Source: Alphaproteobacteria bacterium (GTDB lineage: Bacteria; Pseudomonadota; Alphaproteobacteria; RF32; CAG-239). From it: 50,954 nucleotides of DNA. A model generated the notes under the pieces. That model made no database searches. It saw nothing but the letters and a program-made list of their open reading frames with translations, and was not told where the DNA came from. The stretch's first letter is position 1. Each line of letters opens with the position of its first letter. The stretch covers positions 1-50,954 of the forward strand of contig JAFVFH010000054.1 of NCBI GenBank assembly GCA_017475525.1, in the 5' to 3' direction. The position numbers were made by a program, and so were the translations under genes. Positions 2,921 to 40,158 of the stretch are shown here, in pieces.

Positions 2921-3030
2921 TAACACACGCAAGCCAAGGCGGATTGCTTTTGATGAAAAGTTAAATTCGCTCCGGTGCCTTGAGAAATCAAAGCCAAAAG
3001 CTTGCGGAGGTTTAACCGGAAAAGAAAAGG
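2921..3030 (+). promoter_or_regulatory. rpsB 5' leader (S2 autoregulatory RNA)
   Basis: cacacgc...cggtgcc...gcggaggtttaaccgg in the long rpsB 5' UTR; resembles alphaproteobacterial rpsB leaders as recalled. Confidence 0.5.
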
Positions 3031-3039
3031 AATTTATAT

Positions 3040-3846
3040 ATGTCACTTCCGACTTTTACTTTGCGTCAGCTTGTTGAAGCAGGCGCGCACTTCGGTCACC
3101 ACGCTCGTCGTTGGAACCCGAAAATGGCTCCTTACATTTATGGTAAGAAAGACAATATTCACATCATTAACTTGCAAAAAACATATCCGATGCTTTACAA
3201 CGCATTAAATGCAGCGCGTGAAGTGGCGGCTAACGGCGGCAAAGTCTTGTTTGTTGCTACAAAAAAGCAAGCTCAAGATGTGGTGAAAGAAAACGCACTT
3301 CGTTGCGGTCAATATTATGTGAACTATCGTTGGTTAGGCGGTATGCTCACGAACTGGAAAACAGTTCACAAATCAATTACCCGTTTGGTCAAATTAAACG
3401 ATATGTTCGAAAATAACCAAACAGAAGGTTATACCAAAAAGGAAATTTTGAACCTTAAAAAAGAGCAAGAAAAACTTGCAATGTCTTTGAATGGTATTAT
3501 GAACATGGGTGGTCAGCCTGATATGCTTTTTGTGATTGATACACCTAAAGAAGCTCTTGCAATCAAAGAAGCTAAAAAACTCGGCATTCCTGTTGTCGGT
3601 ATTGTTGATACAAATGCTGATCCGACAGAAGTTGATTATCCGGTTCCGGCTAACGATGATGCTATTCGCGCCATTACGCTTTATTGCGAACTCATGAGCG
3701 CTGCCATCGTTGACGGTATGGCATCTGAAATGGAAGCCAAAGGTGTTGAGGTTGAAGCTGAAGCATCTGCTGAAGAAACAGCTGAAACAAAGGCTCCCAA
3801 AAAACGTGCCCCGAGAAAAAAAGCTGAAGAAAAAGCAGCTGAATAA
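3040..3846 (+). CDS. rpsB: 30S ribosomal protein S2
   Basis: [21 protein letters not shown] and [10 protein letters not shown] motifs. Confidence 0.99.
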
Positions 3847-14000: not shown

Positions 14001-16607
14001 ATGACAACAGAACAAAAACAAGTGTTAACGTTAGAAGATTTGGACGCGCTTCTTGACAGAGTGCATGCGGCGCAAAATCAATACGCCACATTTTCGGAAG
14101 AAAAAGTTGATGCGATTTTTAAGGCTGCCGCAACCGCTGCCAACAAAATGCGAATCGATTTGGCCGAAATGGCTGTCGAGGAAACGGGTATGGGCGTTTT
14201 GGAAGACAAAATCATTAAAAATCACTTTGCAAGCGAATATATTTATAACAAGCACAAAGGGGTTAAAACTTGCGGTATTATCAAACGCGACAAGGTAAAC
14301 GGAACAAAAATCGTGGCGGCACCGCTCGGGGTGATTGCCGGTATTGTGCCGACAACAAATCCGACATCAACCGCGATTTTCAAATCTTTGATTGCTTTGA
14401 AAACAAGAAACGGTATTGTGTTTTCACCGCATCCGAGAGCTAAAAAATCAACAATTGCCGCCGCTAAGGTCGTTCTGGATGCAGCCGTTAAAGCCGGTGC
14501 ACCGAAAGATATTATCGGCTGGATTGATGAACCGACAATGGAGCTTTCGGGCGCATTGATGGGGCATAAGAAAATTCAGTGTATCTTAGCAACCGGTGGC
14601 CCGGGGATGGTGAAAGCGGCCTATTCGAGCGGAACGCCGGCCATCGGCGTCGGTTCGGGAAATACGCCTGCGATTATTGATGAAACGGCAGATATTAAAA
14701 TGGCAGTTTCTTCGATTTTGATGTCTAAGACTTTTGATAACGGTATGATTTGCGCTTCCGAACAATCGGTGATTGTGGTCAAAGATGTCTATGATGCCGT
14801 AAAAAATGAATTTGTTTATCGCGGTGCTCATCTCTTAAATAAAAAGGAAACAGAGCAACTTGCAAAAATTATTTTGACACCGAAAGGGGTTAATGCGTCG
14901 ATTGTTGGTCAACCGGCTTATAAAATTGCTGAGCTTGCCGGATTTAAGGTGCCTCATGATGCAAAAATTTTGCTTGCCGAACAAACGGATTATAGCGCGG
15001 AAAATCCGTATGCCCATGAAAAATTATCGCCTATTTTGACCATGTATAAGGCCGAAAATTTTGAAGAAGCAACGGATATGGCTTATGCGCTTGTAAACCT
15101 TGGCGGTTTGGGACATACGTCTGTTTTATACACCGATGAGCGTGTGCAAGACAGAATAGATTTTTATGCGGCAAAAATGCCGACAGGTCGAATTTTAATA
15201 AACAGCCCGTCATCTCAAGGCGGAATCGGCGATTTGTTCAATTTCCGTTTAGAGCCCTCACTGACATTAGGTTGCGGTTCTTGGGGCGGCAACGCAGTGA
15301 GCGAAAATGTTGGGGTGAAACATTTATTAAACTATAAAACAGTTGCAGAAAGGAGAGAAAATATGTTGTGGTTTAAGGTGCCTCCGAAAATTTATTTCAA
15401 GCGCGGTGCAACCGATTTGGCTTTGCGCGAATTTGAAGGTAAAAAGCGTGCGTTTATTGTGACAGACAGATTTTTGTTTGACAGTGGCGCGGTGAGAGCC
15501 ATTACAGATGTTTTTGAAGAAATCGGAGTTGATTTTCAAATTTTCTTTGACGTCAAACCGGATCCGGATTTGTCGACAATTGAGCAGGCTTTGACAATGG
15601 TTAAAACCTATCAGCCTGATTTGATTGTGGCATTGGGCGGCGGTTCGCCGATGGATGCGGCAAAGGTGATTTGGCTGATGTATGAGCACCCTGAGACGAA
15701 TTTTGAAGATGTGGCAATGCGCTTTATGGACATCAGAAAGAGGATTTGCCAGCTTCCGGAACTCGGGCTGAAAGCAAAGCTTGTTTGTATTCCGACAACA
15801 TCGGGCACGGGTTCGGAGGTCACACCGTTTGCGGTGATTACCGATGATAAAACGCATCTGAAATATCCTTTGGCAGATTATGCGTTAACGCCATCAATGG
15901 CCATCGTTGATGCGAACTTTGTTGACGGTATGCCGAAAGGTTTGACATCTGCCGGCGGTATTGATGCTTTGGTGCATGCGTTGGAAGCTTATGTTTCTTG
16001 TATGGCAACAAACTATACAAACTCGCTTGCTTTAGAGGCAATTAAGCAAATTTTCCGTTATTTGCCAAGCGCATACAAAAACGGTGCAAACGATCCGAAA
16101 GCAAGAGAAAAAATGCACAATGCCGCAACAATGGCCGGTATGGCTTTTGCAAATGCCTTTTTGGGCTTGTGTCATTCCATGGCGCATAAGTTGGGCGCGA
16201 TGTATCATATTCCGCATGGTATTGCAAATGCGCTTCTGATTTGCCAAATTATTCGCTTTAATGCTAACGACAAGCCGACAAAGCAGGCGATTTTCCCGCA
16301 ATACAAAGTTCCGGAAGCAAAGAAACGTTATGCACAAATTGCTCATGTTTTGTATTTGGGCGATGAAAAGACAAGCGAAGATGAGCGCGTTAATTTGCTC
16401 ATTGATGCTGTTGCCAAGCTTAAAGACGAGATTGAAATTCCGAGATCAATCAAAGAATACGGCATTGATGAAAAGACTTTCATGCAAAATCTTGATGAGC
16501 TTGTGAGATTGGCTTATGATGATCAGTGCACGGGTGCAAACCCTGTTTATCCGCTAATGAGCGAGATTAAGCAAATTTATATCGATGCTTTTGAAGGAAA
16601 ATATTAA
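14001..16607 (+). CDS. adhE: bifunctional acetaldehyde-CoA/alcohol dehydrogenase
   Basis: ATGGPGMV, ICASEQ, TLGCGSWGGN, GGGSPMDAAK and HSMAHK motifs. Confidence 0.98.
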   Translation: MTTEQKQVLTLEDLDALLDRVHAAQNQYATFSEEKVDAIFKAAATAANKMRIDLAEMAVEETGMGVLEDKIIKNHFASEYIYNKHKGVKTCGIIKRDKVNGTKIVAAPLGVIAGIVPTTNPTSTAIFKSLIALKTRNGIVFSPHPRAKKSTIAAAKVVLDAAVKAGAPKDIIGWIDEPTMELSGALMGHKKIQCILATGGPGMVKAAYSSGTPAIGVGSGNTPAIIDETADIKMAVSSILMSKTFDNGMICASEQSVIVVKDVYDAVKNEFVYRGAHLLNKKETEQLAKIILTPKGVNASIVGQPAYKIAELAGFKVPHDAKILLAEQTDYSAENPYAHEKLSPILTMYKAENFEEATDMAYALVNLGGLGHTSVLYTDERVQDRIDFYAAKMPTGRILINSPSSQGGIGDLFNFRLEPSLTLGCGSWGGNAVSENVGVKHLLNYKTVAERRENMLWFKVPPKIYFKRGATDLALREFEGKKRAFIVTDRFLFDSGAVRAITDVFEEIGVDFQIFFDVKPDPDLSTIEQALTMVKTYQPDLIVALGGGSPMDAAKVIWLMYEHPETNFEDVAMRFMDIRKRICQLPELGLKAKLVCIPTTSGTGSEVTPFAVITDDKTHLKYPLADYALTPSMAIVDANFVDGMPKGLTSAGGIDALVHALEAYVSCMATNYTNSLALEAIKQIFRYLPSAYKNGANDPKAREKMHNAATMAGMAFANAFLGLCHSMAHKLGAMYHIPHGIANALLICQIIRFNANDKPTKQAIFPQYKVPEAKKRYAQIAHVLYLGDEKTSEDERVNLLIDAVAKLKDEIEIPRSIKEYGIDEKTFMQNLDELVRLAYDDQCTGANPVYPLMSEIKQIYIDAFEGKY

Positions 16608-16609
16608 AA

Positions 16610-17212
16610 ATGTTGGCAATCTCGGGTAAATTGATACATCGTTTGACGCTTTATCACGGTATATTAACTTATACGCTGTGCGGGCAAGAATATGTTTCAA
16701 GCAACGAGATTGCCACCCTTTTGAAGATTGATGATTCTCAGGTTAGAAAAGATATTGCTCTTTGCGGTGTTCAGGGGCTACCCAAACACGGATACAAGGT
16801 TTTGGCTTTGAAAAAAAGCATTGAGCAAAAGCTTTCTTTTAACAAACAGAAGGATATTTTTGTGATTGGCGCCGGACATTTGGCAACGGCTTTGACGCAA
16901 TATGCTGATTTTAAGGCTTACGGCATCAATATTTTGGCGCTTTTTGACAATTATGAATCAAAAATCGGACAAATGATTAACGGCAAGCGCGTTTTTGATA
17001 TTAATCGTTTGGAAAACTTGATTGGACGGATGAAAATCGACACCGTGATTTTGGCTCTTCCGCCTCAAAATGCGCAAGAAGTAACAAATCGTCTTGTCAA
17101 AAGCGGGATTAAATTTATTTGGAATTTTACGCCGTGCATTATTGAGGTTCCCGATGAGGTTGTCGTTTGCTATGAAAATATTGTGAGCGGGTTTTTACAG
17201 CTCATTTTGTAA
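16610..17212 (+). CDS. rex: redox-sensing transcriptional repressor Rex
   Basis: RL..Y, SQVRKD winged helix, GY.V..L, IGAGHL Rossmann motif, IWNFTP. Confidence 0.9.
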   Translation: MLAISGKLIHRLTLYHGILTYTLCGQEYVSSNEIATLLKIDDSQVRKDIALCGVQGLPKHGYKVLALKKSIEQKLSFNKQKDIFVIGAGHLATALTQYADFKAYGINILALFDNYESKIGQMINGKRVFDINRLENLIGRMKIDTVILALPPQNAQEVTNRLVKSGIKFIWNFTPCIIEVPDEVVVCYENIVSGFLQLIL

Positions 17213-17440
17213 ATCTTGAGAAGCTTTTCTCATGGCTTCTAATGTCCTCTTTTTTCCTTATGCAGTATTTTCTACACTGCGTCGAATTCATGCGTGCCGG
17301 ATAAAGATTTTGAAGAAGCGTATGATGCAAGGGATTATCCAAGTCCGTCATAGGTTTGCGAATTTTTATTAAATAACACAAAAAAACGCTCTACCGGATT
17401 ATTTTTTATATAACCCATTATATGCCTTGATTTTATTTGC

Positions 17441-17887
17441 TTTTTTGCACTTTTTATCGCTTTTATCATTTTTAATTCTCTGCCGGCGTTGAGCCTCTAT
17501 CTTCTGCTTGTCCGAAACCCGAATCCCGTTTGGCAAATCGAGCTGATTTATTTTAGCTTTGTGTCGCTCGGCTTTGTTCTCCCGTTTGCCTCGCTTTGTT
17601 TTTATTCCAACTTGGCTCTGCTGATTGAAAACGAACCTTGGTGCAATTTTAAGCAAATTTATCAAAAAACACGGTTTAAGCTCTCTAAAATTTTCTTTTC
17701 ATTTGCGGTTGTTTTAGGTTTTTGCCTGCTTTTGTTTATGAGCGTCAACAACAGCTTAAAGGCAAACATTTTTGAACCGTTTTTTGTGTATAACACCATA
17801 AGCGAATATCTTTTTGAACTCACGATTTTATTGATTTTCACACTTGTTTTGAACTTCATCCGCGTTCAAAAAGAGATTTTTGAATAA
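17441..17887 (+). pseudogene. 5'-truncated duplicate of the membrane-protein gene at 46760-47533
   Basis: Translation is near-identical to the C-terminal half of that protein; no start region. DNA homology runs to 17943. Confidence 0.85.
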
Positions 17888-17917
17888 AATTTCAGCCTAT
17901 CTTTCACAAGAATCTAT

Positions 17918-17946
17918 TTGACTTTTTTCCTTTGGTGTGGCATCAT
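17918..17946 (+). promoter_or_regulatory. promoter of leader A
   Basis: TTGACT-17 bp-CATCAT; same design at 40047-40019 (-) and a decayed copy near 46728-46700 (-). Confidence 0.7.
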
Positions 17947-17951
17947 TAAAG

Positions 17952-18111
17952 TATAACCGAAATGGTTATGGTGTCTAGTTGGCATTTTCGAAACGTATAC
18001 TCCTGCTAACGGGAGTTCTTGATATAAGCATATTTATGACGAATAAAAGAGGCTGCGTTTCGACAGTTAACTAGCTCCCACTTTGGATATTTTCTGAAGT
18101 GATTTTTTTTT
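17952..18111 (+). ncRNA. putative structured leader/attenuator (copy A)
   Basis: Colinear with copy B, with compensatory stem changes; ends in ctcc, hairpin and T9. Confidence 0.75.
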
Positions 18112-18162
18112 CAGTAAACATCATCCTGAGCTTGTTTCGGGATCTAACAAAGGAGAAAAACG

Positions 18163-19422
18163 ATGAGATACAAATTTTTAACAGCTGTCTTAGCAGCCTC
18201 AACAGCCCTATCTGATATAGCCATGGCAACAATTCCCGAAGGTTGTGTTGATAAGGGCGACGGCACTTGCATCTATCGCGAAAAAAATGTGACGTCGCAA
18301 TATGACACCTCAAGCGGATATATCCTTCAAAAAACAGTTTTAAGTGCCGCACAAGGCGGCGAAGGGGTTGGCGTCAGCACCAATGTTTATAACTATAGCT
18401 ATGATGCTAACGGAAATGTGAGCGAACTTTCTCTGACCCAATATCCGGATGGTTCTGATAAAAGCCAAAAAACCGTTGTGCAATACAGCTACGATGAAGA
18501 TAACAATTTGATTTCAGCAACGCGCCAAAGTTATGAAAATTATGACAACCCTAATGTCAACAATTTCGCTTTTAATGAACTGAATATGTTTGACGGACCT
18601 CACATGCTCTATACATCTGAGCCGTCGACAGATCCCTATGGCAACCCGCAGACTTATGTTTATGACACGCACGAAAACGGAAACAAAACAAAAACTTATT
18701 TGTGGGATGAGAATAACGGAGAGGTTTATACATATAATAGCGATGGCATATTGATAGGCTATGGCTATATACAAAACGGCGAAACGAATAATGTCTACAC
18801 ACTCGATAATAACGGTGCGCTGCTGTCCGTTGGCGCTCAAGCTGGAACTGTAATAGACGTCACTTATGATGAAAACGGCGGCTTTTCAGCCTCAGAAAGT
18901 TACGGTCAGTCAAACTCATACAAATTAACCATTGACCCGAACTATACTTTGCCTGACGGGAGAGTCGTCACTTTGCAAACGATGTGGCAGGAAAAAGGAT
19001 GGACAGGAGAACCTTTAGAAACAGTGTCCGCCTTTGCTTATCTTCAAGAAGGCAAAGAGATGATTGTAGACGGCTATACAAATTATGATAAATATGGCAA
19101 TCCGACATACATTCGGATGTACTATTACACAGAAGACGGTCAGCCGGAAAATATAACAAACAAGTATTATTCTTACACCTATGACGAAGACGGACAGATA
19201 TTAACCTGTTCAGAAAGAAATAATTCGAAAGATCCATGGGCGACTTGCAGTGAAAACAGCGGTTCAAACTCGAATGTTTCCGGCGGCGGTACAAATTCGG
19301 AAAATTCGGAAACAAGCGGTTCTTTTGCGCCTACCCGCAATCCAAAACGCATTTATACCGTTGAAGAAGCCGCGGCACTTTCAAAAGAAACAGGCAACAC
19401 CTTCCGTCTTCGTTACAAATAA
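18163..19422 (+). CDS. secreted protein with YD-like repeats, Ser/Asn/Gly linker and conserved C-terminal tag
   Basis: AAGGAG RBS; signal peptide; YSYDANGN, YSYDEDNN and YTYDEDGQ repeats; ends KRIYTVEEAAALSKETGNTFRLRYK. Confidence 0.85.
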   Translation: MRYKFLTAVLAASTALSDIAMATIPEGCVDKGDGTCIYREKNVTSQYDTSSGYILQKTVLSAAQGGEGVGVSTNVYNYSYDANGNVSELSLTQYPDGSDKSQKTVVQYSYDEDNNLISATRQSYENYDNPNVNNFAFNELNMFDGPHMLYTSEPSTDPYGNPQTYVYDTHENGNKTKTYLWDENNGEVYTYNSDGILIGYGYIQNGETNNVYTLDNNGALLSVGAQAGTVIDVTYDENGGFSASESYGQSNSYKLTIDPNYTLPDGRVVTLQTMWQEKGWTGEPLETVSAFAYLQEGKEMIVDGYTNYDKYGNPTYIRMYYYTEDGQPENITNKYYSYTYDEDGQILTCSERNNSKDPWATCSENSGSNSNVSGGGTNSENSETSGSFAPTRNPKRIYTVEEAAALSKETGNTFRLRYK

Positions 19423-19598
19423 ATTGTCTTTATTCAATCCCCCCTTGTGCGCCCTTGGCTCACAAACCCCAAAGCCCCCTCGTTTTTGCTCAAAGCAAAA
19501 ACGTCCGGGGGCAAGGCAAAAAGTACCGCAACGTACATAACGTGAAGACACTTTTGACCTGAAATTTTGGGCTTAGATAACCTGTTATACGCGGTTTT

Positions 19599-19808
19599 TT
19601 AAGGGACGGGGTCATAGCCGGATCCGCCCCACGGGTGGCAACGTATAATGCGTTTTATTCCTATATATAGTCCTTTGACAACGCCGTGTTTTTTTAATGC
19701 CTCAATCATATATTCCGAGCATGTCGGCTTGTACCTGCAGCATCCGCCGCAAAGAGGCGATAAAAAAATTTGATAAAAGCGAACAAGCTTAATTAAGAGC
19801 CACTTCAT
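19599..19808 (-). CDS. yidD: membrane protein insertion efficiency factor
   Basis: [31 protein letters not shown]; start reassigned to 19808. Confidence 0.95.
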
Positions 19809-20205
19809 CTTCAGATGTTTCCTTATTAACAGGTGGCGGAGGTGATTGAAAAATACCTTTTTCAATCATGGCATTTGCCTTTTTTAATGCCCATTTAATA
19901 TCACTTTTAAGTTCTTTATACGGGCAATTTGCCGTGTTGTAGCGCCCGATTAAAACATATTCCACATTATCCATTGCTCTTGAGGGAAAAACCTCGCGCA
20001 CAACGGCACGAAGCCTGCGTCGTGTTCTGGTACGTACAACGGCTGAGCCGATTTTCTTGGTGGTTGTAAAACCAACCTTAAACCGTATCTTTTCTTTAGA
20101 TAAACTGGGAGCCGCCTGAAGAATAACGGTCGAAACGACCATTCGAATCCCATCGGCGACTCTTACAAAATCTCTTCTTTTTTTTAAGTGAAGAATTTTA
20201 TCCAT
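19789..20205 (-). CDS. rnpA: ribonuclease P protein component
   Basis: [30 protein letters not shown]; lies between rpmH and yidD. Confidence 0.95.
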
Positions 20206-20210
20206 GAATT

Positions 20211-20345
20211 TTAAGCGGAAAGTTTTTTACGCCCTCTTGCGCGACGCGCTGCCAAAACTTTGCGTCCGCCGACTGTTGCCATACGTGTTCTGAAACCATG
20301 GCGACGAGCTCTGATGAGCTTACTTGGTTGATATGTTCTTTTCAT
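20211..20345 (-). CDS. rpmH: 50S ribosomal protein L34 (absent from the ORF track)
   Basis: Manual translation [44 protein letters not shown]. Confidence 0.98.
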
Positions 20346-38953: not shown

Positions 38954-39829
38954 TTATTTATAGCGCAGTTTGAAGGTGTTGCCTGTTTTTTTAGAAACAA
39001 GTGAGGCTTCTTCTATCGTATAAAAACGCCTGTTCTCTCGTTTGCCGGATGTTGTGACAAGTTTTCCTTTATTGTCAAACACATAGGTCACACCATTGAC
39101 TTGTTTTGTTGTGGCTTTGATTGATTTGAGCTCGCCATAACCTGCCGCTTCTAAATTTGCGTCGCATTTTTTTGTATCTCCCGTGCAATAGATTTTGAGA
39201 TTTTCTAAATCAACACGCATATTTTCACCGTGCTCGGTAAAAATATGTCCTAAGGCGGTTTTGTCGCTGATGGTTAGGGTTAAAAGACTTTCACATGCGC
39301 TTAAAGTTGCAGAACCTAAGTTTGTAACAGAATCAGGAATAAAAACGTCTGTCAGTGACGTTCCGCGAAAAGCCTCAGCAATGTCTGTCACGGAAGATGG
39401 AATATTAATTTTTTTTAAGTCGGACCAGTTAAAAGCCGCAGTATCAATTTTGGTCACGGAATCCGGAATAACAACTTCATTAAGTATAGCGCCATAAAAA
39501 GCATTAGCGCTGATAGTTGTTATTGATGAAGGGATTTGAAGTATGCCCTCATCCTTAATACCATGAAAAGCTTGCCAACCTAAATCTTTGATGGTGTCTT
39601 CAATCACAATATTACGGATATCTTGACCACGCCATGGTGCCAATATTCCTGTACCATTAGACCAGCTTCCGATATTGCCATTATTACCTGTGCCGCGAAT
39701 CGTTAAAGTGCCATTGACAATTTGGTATTCGCAATTTGCCGTATTGCCCTTGGCATCTGTGCCGCAAGCTTCCCACGCGTTGGCGTTAAAACTTGCAAGT
39801 ATTGCTAAAATCAAAACTGTTTTTTTCAT
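38954..39829 (-). CDS. secreted BspA-type (LRR_5) protein with conserved C-terminal tag
   Basis: Signal peptide; IPSSITTI, IPDSVTKI and IPSSVTDI repeats; ends RRFYTIEEASLVSKKTGNTFKLRYK. Confidence 0.9.
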   Translation of the reverse strand: MKKTVLILAILASFNANAWEACGTDAKGNTANCEYQIVNGTLTIRGTGNNGNIGSWSNGTGILAPWRGQDIRNIVIEDTIKDLGWQAFHGIKDEGILQIPSSITTISANAFYGAILNEVVIPDSVTKIDTAAFNWSDLKKINIPSSVTDIAEAFRGTSLTDVFIPDSVTNLGSATLSACESLLTLTISDKTALGHIFTEHGENMRVDLENLKIYCTGDTKKCDANLEAAGYGELKSIKATTKQVNGVTYVFDNKGKLVTTSGKRENRRFYTIEEASLVSKKTGNTFKLRYK

Positions 39830-39850: not shown

Positions 39851-40013
39851 AAAAAAATCCGTTCGAGATAAACAAAACGGAGGAGGAGCTCAAAGAACTG
39901 TTGGTGCACAGCTTGTCTTATTCGACGCAAAATTGACGCTTATATCGACTACTCCTCATCAAGGAGTTGAACACCAAAGATGTCTTTGAAACACCGCAAC
40001 CATTTTGGTTACG
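39851..40013 (-). ncRNA. putative structured leader/attenuator (copy B)
   Basis: Homolog of copy A with compensatory changes; promoter TTGACT-17-CATCAT at 40047-40019; terminator tccgtt/aacgga plus U7. Confidence 0.75.
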
Positions 40014-40158
40014 CTTTTATGATGCCACATCAAACGTTAAAAGTCAAATAAAAAAGGTTTTAATTATGTGTTTTTTGAGCTTTTCATATTAAAAAAGTTT
40101 GTTATATTGTTAAATATGGAAGCGGCATATATGTGCCTGATGGCACAACGCCGGCTTT

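Follow-up and report, generated by a model that had tools for sequence, protein, structure and literature searches.

The two leader RNAs in the window, the whole 50,954-nucleotide stretch of DNA analysed here, are members of a leader family that is real and strongly supported as judged from sequence, and whose expression is predicted. The family probably represents a new group of cis-acting, riboswitch-like transcription attenuators with a predicted transcription start (+1), predicted termination and predicted read-through. The window is contig C86 of an 87-contig assembly of 1,444,936 bases (40% G+C, estimated 85% complete), and its two copies, A on the forward strand and B on the reverse strand, comprise the following parts.

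17918-18111, + strand: copy A as a whole, read from the sequence and aligned with B
17918..17946, + strand: promoter of A, with -35 TTGACT at 17918-17923, a 17-nt spacer and an extended -10 TGgCATCAT at 17938-17946
17953..17969, + strand: P0, the 5′-terminal hairpin of A, beginning at the predicted +1; 7/7 pairs change on both sides
17970..17975, + strand: segment a (GGTGT) of A, with the tail GCTCC as partner; near-invariant pairs
C17975, + strand: bulged base of A, forming a long-range tertiary pair with G18051
17976-17982, + strand: 5′ strand of P1 of A; 3-6 pair types per position, top mutual-information pairs
17988-17995, + strand: 5′ strand of P2 of A; likewise 3-6 pair types per position and top mutual-information pairs
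17999..18016, + strand: P3 hairpin of A, with b = ACTCCT at 17999-18004, a loop, and c = GGGAGT at 18011-18016
18017-20 and 18047-50, + strand: P4 of A, enclosing the conserved internal loop and P5; all pairs change on both sides
18021-28 (GATATAAG) and 18040-46 (CGAATAA), + strand: internal loop of P4 of A, near-invariant in the consensus of both alignments
18029-38, + strand: P5, the variable hairpin of A; all pairs change on both sides
18051..18073 region, + strand: J4/2 (GGCTG) of A, with G18051 as the tertiary partner of C17975
18056-63, + strand: 3′ strand of P2 of A, followed by a CAGT loop strand
18067-73, + strand: 3′ strand of P1 of A; covariation in the alignments of both own and foreign copies
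18074..18080, + strand: tail d of A, GCTCC plus the positions M1 and M2 (C18079, A18080)
18079..18111, + strand: intrinsic terminator of A, with stem 18079-18087 / 18095-18101 and T-run 18103-18111
18150-55 and 18163-19422, + strand: RBS AAGGAG and gene A (419 aa)
40047-39851, - strand: copy B as a whole, read from the sequence and aligned with A
40019..40047, - strand: promoter of B, with -35 TTGACT at 40047-40042, a 17-nt spacer, -10 CATCAT at 40024-40019 and TG at 40027-26
39882..40012, - strand: leader core of B (P0 through tail), scoring 147.5 bits with the covariance model and 125.9 bits with the second model, R2
39851..39881, - strand: intrinsic terminator of B, with stem TCCGTT../..AACGGA and T-run 39857-39851
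39843-39838 and 39829-38954, - strand: RBS and gene B (291 aa)

A preliminary description of the window had proposed a promoter and colinear linkers common to A and B, and a pairwise alignment bears this out, with 76% mean column identity over 281 columns that include promoter and terminator. The linkers it named are found in both copies (GGTGT, ACTCC..GGAGT, GATATAAG, CGAATAA, CTG, CAGTT and GCTCC), the P1, P2 and P4 stems differ in sequence between A and B and keep their complementarity in each, and the terminator placed ahead of the RBS is present in both as a hairpin and T-run followed by AAGGAG and then ATG (18163 in A, 39829 in B). A conserved internal-loop strand separates the 5′ strands of P1 and P2 in A (17976..17995). 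Copy B carries an extra TCC, its tail being GCTCCTCCTCC, and its terminator stem is displaced 3 nt beyond M1-M2. The two downstream genes had been taken for unrelated surface-protein genes, which holds for the protein bodies, as these differ, but not for the ends, since the products have in common a signal-peptide-like N-terminus and a 28-residue C-terminal tag with 18/28 residues identical. The product of gene A, with both of these features, matches no Pfam or NCBIfam family, and that of gene B is a BspA-type LRR_5 protein ending in the same tag. A poly-A RNA run with the same species label has 0 reads over 16600-20300, a result that speaks neither for nor against transcription.

The resemblance of A and B is far beyond chance, and an iterated nhmmer profile recovers 87 copies in their own genome (loci L031-L117), or about one copy per 17 kb. 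A BLAST-type search with A alone gives 40 matches in this genome, nhmmer with A and B gives 85 merged places, and iteration of the profile brings the total to 87, at which it converges. A covariance model built from the gapless two-copy seed with a hand-checked structure, to which the copies, varying in stem length, were realigned, matches 86 of the 87 nhmmer loci, two of them cut by contig ends; L117 is a weak partial nhmmer match without confirmation by the covariance model. The cassette measures about 200 nt and comprises a sigma-70-like promoter, a structured leader of about 130 nt from the predicted +1, and an intrinsic terminator. A strict pattern of -35, 17-19 nt and -10 is recognised in 62/82 own copies and in 67/98 foreign copies from other genomes, and the recognised -10 ends 6-7 nt ahead of the first model base in 60/62 and 61/67 of these promoters, respectively, which places the beginning of P0 at the predicted +1. 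Behind the T-run, a Shine-Dalgarno (SD)-like sequence and an ORF in the same orientation follow in 81/84 evaluable copies, at a median distance of 29 nt (10th-90th percentile 20-113); of the remaining copies, two are cut off by contig ends and the third precedes a 244-aa ATG ORF behind a weaker SD.

This sense placement at gene 5′ ends bears on the suggestion in the preliminary description that the copies could be scattered irrespective of gene starts and orientation, as MITE-like elements are, and it indicates that their spread is not MITE-like. Although the very high copy number would suit a selfish repeat, the orientation and the distance to the next ORF are fixed and the stems evolve by compensatory change, so that this explanation has, even when taken together with the leader-peptide attenuation considered below, next to no probability.

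The copies whose single-sequence MFE folds were read through have one architecture, which begins with the P0 hairpin and continues with a closing helix GGUGU:GCUCC containing a U-U mismatch, P1, a conserved 5x5 internal loop, and P2 stacked on P1. Beyond P2 lies a three-way junction with P3 (ACUCC..GGAGU) and P4, the latter consisting of an invariant internal loop, GAUAUAAG/CGAAUAA, and the variable P5; in short variants the two A-rich strands take the form of two AAUAAG repeats. When the own copies are aligned with the model, standard pairs fill 96.1% of the 3702 cells, compared with 71.9% in column shuffles (0/500 reach the observed value) and 36-47% with slid partners; both sides vary in 37/45 pairs, and single positions show as many as six pair types. 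As this alignment is fitted to the structure, the test was repeated on copies from other genomes, obtained by a pattern scan and from relatives and aligned with R2. The 99 distinct foreign copies, which were absent from model building, are 94.6% paired versus 43-48% with slid partners, and 34/45 pairs change on both sides. The P0 hairpin has 99.2% paired cells in own copies and 97.5% in foreign ones, and a blind mutual-information scan recovers all helices as top pairs. The covariation of the stems that had been read from A and B is thus strong in both sets of copies, and the leader combines a conserved, aptamer-like, covarying fold with invariant unpaired nucleotides in the manner of a riboswitch.

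A further interaction lies outside the helices. The base bulged out behind GGUGU covaries with the base that directly follows the P4 3′ strand (UA 40, CG 29 and UG 9 among 78 own copies; CG 63, UA 24, UG 5 and other 1 among 93 foreign copies), and this tertiary pair implies docking of the base of P1 on the junction, for which the P1/P2 internal loop is presumably sharply bent.

The 3′ strand of P3, c, is able to exchange partners. Its sequence (N2 N1 GGAG U) is complementary to the tail d (R CUCC M1 M2), and d can pair with a (GGTGT) or, better, with c (GGGAGT in A). As the model leaves the tail columns unpaired, it does not bias the alignment in favour of the c:d helix. The N1:M1 pair is the strongest mutual-information pair outside the model and exceeds the corresponding P3 pair; all four Watson-Crick types occur among the 99 foreign copies (GC 40, AU 26, UA 18, CG 7, GU 6, other 2), and AU 38, GC 33, GU 8 and other 2 are counted among 81 copies of the own genome. 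These counts are to be read with the fact that merely one or two positions of c:d are able to covary and that subfamily ancestry inflates them. By duplex energy, c:d is stronger than b:c in 82/84 own and 97/99 foreign copies, with medians of -11.0 vs -8.3 kcal/mol and -12.3 vs -7.7 kcal/mol, respectively. A hairpin abutting a U-run follows in 78/82 own and 83/96 foreign copies (median 9-10 bp, -10 to -11 kcal/mol), and M1 and M2 are also the first bases of its stem, which starts at M1 or M2 in 75/78 and 72/83 of these. The tail is therefore common to three partners, namely the closing strand a, the P3 strand c and the 3′ arm of the terminator. The leader thus appears to contain mutually exclusive pairings that include the terminator, as an expression platform does, in that c:d covaries and shares M1 and M2 with it. 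Nested energy models place the full fold plus terminator far below any alternative, which implies that c:d could form only if P1 melted or if the fold had the compact geometry to which the single tertiary pair points.

Pairing of P0 with the 5′ arm of the terminator was also considered as an antiterminator. The duplexes average -8.07 kcal/mol versus -4.81 +/- 2.15 kcal/mol when shuffled and -7.63 kcal/mol for non-cognate combinations, the cognate value being reached in 18/5000 permutations, and in folds truncated before the 3′ arm of the terminator the 5′ arm pairs with P0 at four or more positions in 34/83 copies. No P0-terminator column pair is among the top 45 mutual-information pairs, and with no covariation and modest energetic support this pairing was retained as no more than a weak secondary possibility. 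Ribosome-mediated attenuation through a leader peptide, suggested by an AUG within P0 in 63/84 own copies, was rejected, as the AUG is present in merely 30/99 foreign copies and the stop positions scatter like those of control frames.

Taken as a mechanism, these pairings would make each cassette a self-contained control unit, with promoter, leader and a terminator 10-30 nt ahead of the RBS. The covariation points to strand exchange as the step that would make the decision: b:c, i.e., P3, would serve as the anti-antiterminator and c:d as the antiterminator, which would remove the closing helix along with the two bottom, U-tract-proximal pairs of the terminator stem. Stabilisation of the compact junction fold would keep c in P3 and let the terminator form as the default outcome, and loss of this stabilisation would allow c:d to form and RNA polymerase to read on. 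The opposite polarity would be equally possible, as the sequence is compatible with either, and the choice would fall to an effector that binds at the junction. The description of the leader as bearing the signature of a riboswitch or a protein-dependent antiterminator appears apt in view of the covariation, the placement at gene 5′ ends and the absence of an Rfam match.

A constitutive module that does not switch at all, whether a 5′ stabiliser, an insulator or a factor-independent processive antiterminator like HK022 put or the EAR element of B. subtilis, is an improbable alternative to such an attenuator. A 5′-terminal hairpin at +1 is the classic layout of a stabiliser and P0 sits at the predicted +1, promoter, leader and terminator move as one cassette, and in HK022 put and EAR, too, a promoter is followed by a structured RNA and then a terminator. 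A constitutive module would nevertheless make a second partner for c needless, yet c:d stays complementary through four Watson-Crick types and is stronger than b:c, and some 130 nt with a tertiary pair exceed what stabilisation needs. The leader also has no Rfam match, the antitermination RNAs in Rfam included, and its conserved alternative pairing implies switching, for which put and EAR have, to our knowledge, no need.

Comparison with known RNA classes supports the view in the preliminary description that no known class is involved. A search of the window against Rfam 15 at the gathering score returns only two tRNAs and the rpsB leader. With copy A, matches at E<=10 are restricted to snoRNA or freshwater-2 chance matches of at most 17 bits; 15 diverse copies searched at E<=0.1 give nothing inside the leader and one weak RsmY match outside it. 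Across the whole genome RF01051 has 0 matches and the best match to RF01786 has E = 0.72. Full-text literature searches, which covered the main text of openly available articles, returned no description of the leader RNA. The leader RNA is previously undescribed, closest by regulon and layout to second-messenger riboswitches and by logic to three-element attenuators, and a member of neither.

The likeness to the c-di-GMP-I (GEMM-I, RF01051) and c-di-GMP-II (RF01786) riboswitches lies in multi-copy 5′ leaders with intrinsic terminators ahead of pilin, adhesin and surface-protein genes, as described in PMC11477304. Both sides also have a multi-helix junction with invariant unpaired nucleotides, but the architecture here is that of P0, a closing helix, P1/P2, a three-way junction and an A-rich internal loop, the number of copies per Mb is far higher, and the link to c-di-GMP is loose. 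With attenuators of the trp, pyr and T-box type the leader has in common the overlapping pairings b:c, c:d and d/terminator and a later helix that is stronger than the earlier one. It differs in having neither a leader peptide nor an Rfam match to a T-box or PyrR site, in an antiterminator that would overlap just the bottom 1-2 terminator pairs, and in a sensor that consists of a large junction fold. The RfaH/ops, LoaP and Bacteroides UpxY systems likewise have long 5′ leaders ahead of surface-structure genes, with regulated read-through of a leader terminator. These depend on NusG paralogs and serve few long operons, whereas the present family of genomes has a single NusG gene, and one leader is found before about 85 unlinked monocistronic genes.

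The genes behind the leaders are not metabolic, and gene content points to no particular ligand. Single-linkage clustering places 60/81 of them in one cluster, joined mainly via the C-terminal tag; the bodies of the secreted proteins consist of LRR or RHS/YD/MORN-type repeats or belong to no family. Nine controlled genes encode pilin-like proteins with an N-terminal methylation motif, below the Pfam cut-off, and a few encode small HTH-like proteins. Across the genome the tag is found in 97 ORFs, 52 with a leader within 450 nt upstream and 45 with none, and 9 of the 23 pilin-like ORFs have a leader, which indicates that the leader serves about half of these families and not all of their members. 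The regulon thus appears to be one of the cell surface, with about 50 tagged secreted proteins, pilin-like proteins and small HTH-like proteins.

As to the effector, we can draw on pure inference: a small ligand or second messenger bound at the invariant junction and loop nucleotides might well fill this role, and a dedicated RNA-binding protein could do so with somewhat less expectation. Tentatively, the family could then be a new riboswitch class, in which the P2/P3/P4 junction docked on the base of P1 would form the aptamer for a global signal and the strand-swap antiterminator would gate up to about 85 monocistronic genes. Either c-di-GMP, (p)ppGpp or another nucleotide second messenger may be the signal, or else a small molecule derived from the host. 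If this were so, several per cent of the genes in the genome would be gated, namely those for the pilins and the variable surface proteins of a gut alphaproteobacterium with a reduced genome, and we know of no riboswitch regulon that is larger relative to genome size.

A dedicated RNA-binding protein acting at the A-rich strands or the junction to set b:c against c:d, as PyrR, TRAP and LicT do, would make the leader a protein-dependent attenuator, a reading that we regard as rather unlikely though worth serious weight. The duplicated AAUAAG-like strands resemble a repeated binding site, the regulon is not metabolic, and the restriction of the RNA to one bacterial family is what would be expected of a lineage-specific protein partner. 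On the other hand, protein-binding leaders are typically less elaborate than this fold, and the candidates considered do not fit. The NusG paralog that had been suggested as a binder finds no backing, as more than one match to PF02357 occurs in 0/16 genomes of the family (the own genome and 15 relatives), 3 of the 16 having no match, and two matches are seen only in three larger genomes from other families. CsrA (PF02599) has no match in the own genome, which is 85% complete. The multi-copy small HTH-like family was rejected as partner because it does not track the RNA, being absent in the RNA-rich genomes G002 and G004 and present in 10/19 genomes of the genus g11, in which the RNA is found in 1/19.

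For a second messenger, the own genome encodes one RelA/SpoT protein and one membrane-PAS-GGEEF cyclase with an intact GGEEF active site and RxxD I-site. Neither a c-di-AMP synthase (DAC) nor a class III cyclase is found in it, and at its estimated 85% completeness EAL, HD_5 and PilZ have no match. Among the 25 family members analysed first, three complete genomes have no RNA, and exactly these three have no cyclase. A larger set of 151 genomes shows a weaker correspondence: RNA and cyclase occur together in 85, the RNA alone in 9, the cyclase alone in 31 and neither in 26. The nine genomes with RNA and no cyclase are seven of the genus g6 plus G169 and G099, and their RNA copies are intact; g6 as a whole has the RNA in 7/13 genomes and the cyclase in 0/13, and g11 has the cyclase in 0/19. 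The association between the RNA and the GGDEF cyclase is real, yet loose and clade-driven, and since it rests largely on g11 it reflects few independent events.

These data bear on the idea of a third c-di-GMP riboswitch class, in which the single cyclase would make the signal and the roughly 85 leaders would be its effectors. The presence of one intact cyclase in a genome devoid of matches to EAL, HD_5, PilZ or a known c-di-GMP riboswitch would fit such a circuit, as would the co-occurrence in 85/151 genomes. Pili and adhesins are moreover the classical regulon of c-di-GMP riboswitches, which control type IV pili and adhesins in C. difficile according to PMC11477304. The nine genomes that keep an intact RNA in the absence of the cyclase argue against this idea, as do the dependence of the association on g11, the degenerate motif (RADQF) of the second GGDEF-like protein, and the lack of resemblance to RF01051 or RF01786, and we consider it quite improbable, slightly more so than a constitutive module. 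The wider reading of a riboswitch class for some global signal extends to messengers other than c-di-GMP.

If the attenuator reading holds, one RNA fold would control about 85 promoters in genomes of 1.4-1.7 Mb, and the surface proteome of widespread uncultured gut and rumen Alphaproteobacteria would become directly addressable, with the identity of the effector revealing what these bacteria sense in the host. For RNA biology, the leader offers a well-populated new family with clean covariation and a tertiary pair, and what would be an unusual switch, in which a strand of a junction helix rather than of P1 swaps onto the base of the terminator. With its numerous natural variants, a single genome already provides a mutational series.

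R2 finds the RNA in 19/24 further genomes of the family and in 0/16 genomes that belong to other families within this order and class. When the order was sampled evenly, the RNA was present in 93/149 genomes of the family, covering 17/20 genera, and in 0/1 genome of the second family, and more than 700 matches are spread over 94 of the 151 genomes searched, the own genome included. The family consists of uncultured gut and rumen Alphaproteobacteria, in which the copy number ranges from 1 to at least >80 per genome. A scan for the exact pattern in 185,579 species genomes yields at least 107 stretches. Of the matches listed, nearly all are labelled as uncultured Alphaproteobacteria or as 'proteobacterium' MAGs and come from gut, rumen or faeces, and two contigs bear the label Lachnospiraceae. 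Five genomes from other genera have one copy each, and in all five the cassette is entire: it has the promoter, the leader, the terminator and complementarity of c and d, which reaches 9 bp in G063. The ORFs that follow encode pilin-like, small HTH-like or small unassigned proteins; in G014 only an ORF of 10 codons follows.

In other species, two or three complete units form arrays, as in G152, where three units at a spacing of about 222 nt precede an HTH-like ORF; tandem arrangement is also known for riboswitches. Such arrays without a gene between the units, together with the fact that each unit is a complete transcription unit, could suggest that the promoter-to-terminator transcript of about 165 nt is itself the product, i.e., a trans-acting small RNA serving as sponge or guide, with read-through being incidental. 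This we judge very improbable for several reasons. The copies lie 10-120 nt ahead of the RBS in 81/84 cases and leave no space for a further promoter, and the variable stems have no common seed. The spacers of the G152 array are remnants of the first codons of the downstream HTH-like ORF, which points to duplication rather than design.

A C-terminal tag of about 25-28 residues (consensus KRIYTVEEAxKxSKxTGNTFKLRYK, then stop) is found in 97 ORFs across the window's small genome, G000. Genes A and B, which follow the leader copies of the same names, both carry it:

Window 19339-19422, C-terminal tag coding stretch of gene A
Window 38954-39037, C-terminal tag coding stretch of gene B

The bodies of the tag-bearing ORFs are mutually unrelated, being LRR, RHS/YD, MORN or none of these, and the tag matched no family in Pfam or NCBIfam. 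It resembles a signal by which a dedicated export or attachment system would sort or anchor proteins.

A multi-copy family of small, weakly XRE-like HTH proteins (about 75-110 aa, up to 22 matches per genome), several of them predicted to be controlled by the leader, includes two members in G000:

G000:C7:26306-26542, small HTH-like protein
G000:C54:7603-7929, small HTH-like protein

The family, weighed also as a possible partner of the RNA, has relatives in other genomes as well. Among 151 genomes sampled from the order, 91 have it, and its presence does not co-vary with that of the RNA. Two or three complete promoter-leader-terminator units can stand in tandem, spaced by about 220 nt, with array spacers that retain the RBS and first codons of the HTH-like gene downstream:

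G152:C3 (locus L269:300-900), tandem array
G152:C7, tandem array
G068:C12, tandem array
G097:C2, tandem array
G000:C7:25893-26293, tandem array

Between terminator and RBS, copy A carries a short palindromic insert (..ATCATCCTGAGCTTGTTTCGGGATC.., window 18118-18146) that is missing from B in their alignment. Similar small, GC-richer hairpin repeats lie 3′ of the terminator in copies with long spacers (about 110 nt), as does a recurring GGTTTGGGTTAATATTTGCCACCCC-like block.

As to the leader's effector, one less likely idea is c-di-GMP made by a single cyclase. The 85%-complete G000 encodes an 'orphan' diguanylate cyclase, with orthologs elsewhere, and a second, degenerate protein:

G000:C81:1-1410 (locus L251), multi-pass membrane domain, PAS, and GGEEF with RxxD
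G000:C5, second GGDEF-like membrane protein, degenerate (RADQF)

In the same assembly, EAL, HD-GYP-type (HD_5) and PilZ domains gave no match and known c-di-GMP riboswitches no hit. CsrA, considered as a protein partner, was not found in G000.

Two Rfam matches were noted in passing:

Window 2924-3036, + strand, rpsB leader, 45.4 bits (gathering score 40)
L252:1679-1788 in genome G014, - strand, weak RsmY-like match, 25.8 bits, E 0.009 (gathering score 57)

G014 has one leader copy, and the RsmY-like match, which precedes it by about 50 nt, is probably due to chance. The rpsB match, immediately followed by the ORF at 3040-3846, represents a ribosomal-protein leader of the ordinary kind. The pattern scan also placed the RNA on at least two contigs filed as Lachnospiraceae MAGs (loci L144 and L156), which are likely mis-binned alphaproteobacterial contigs.
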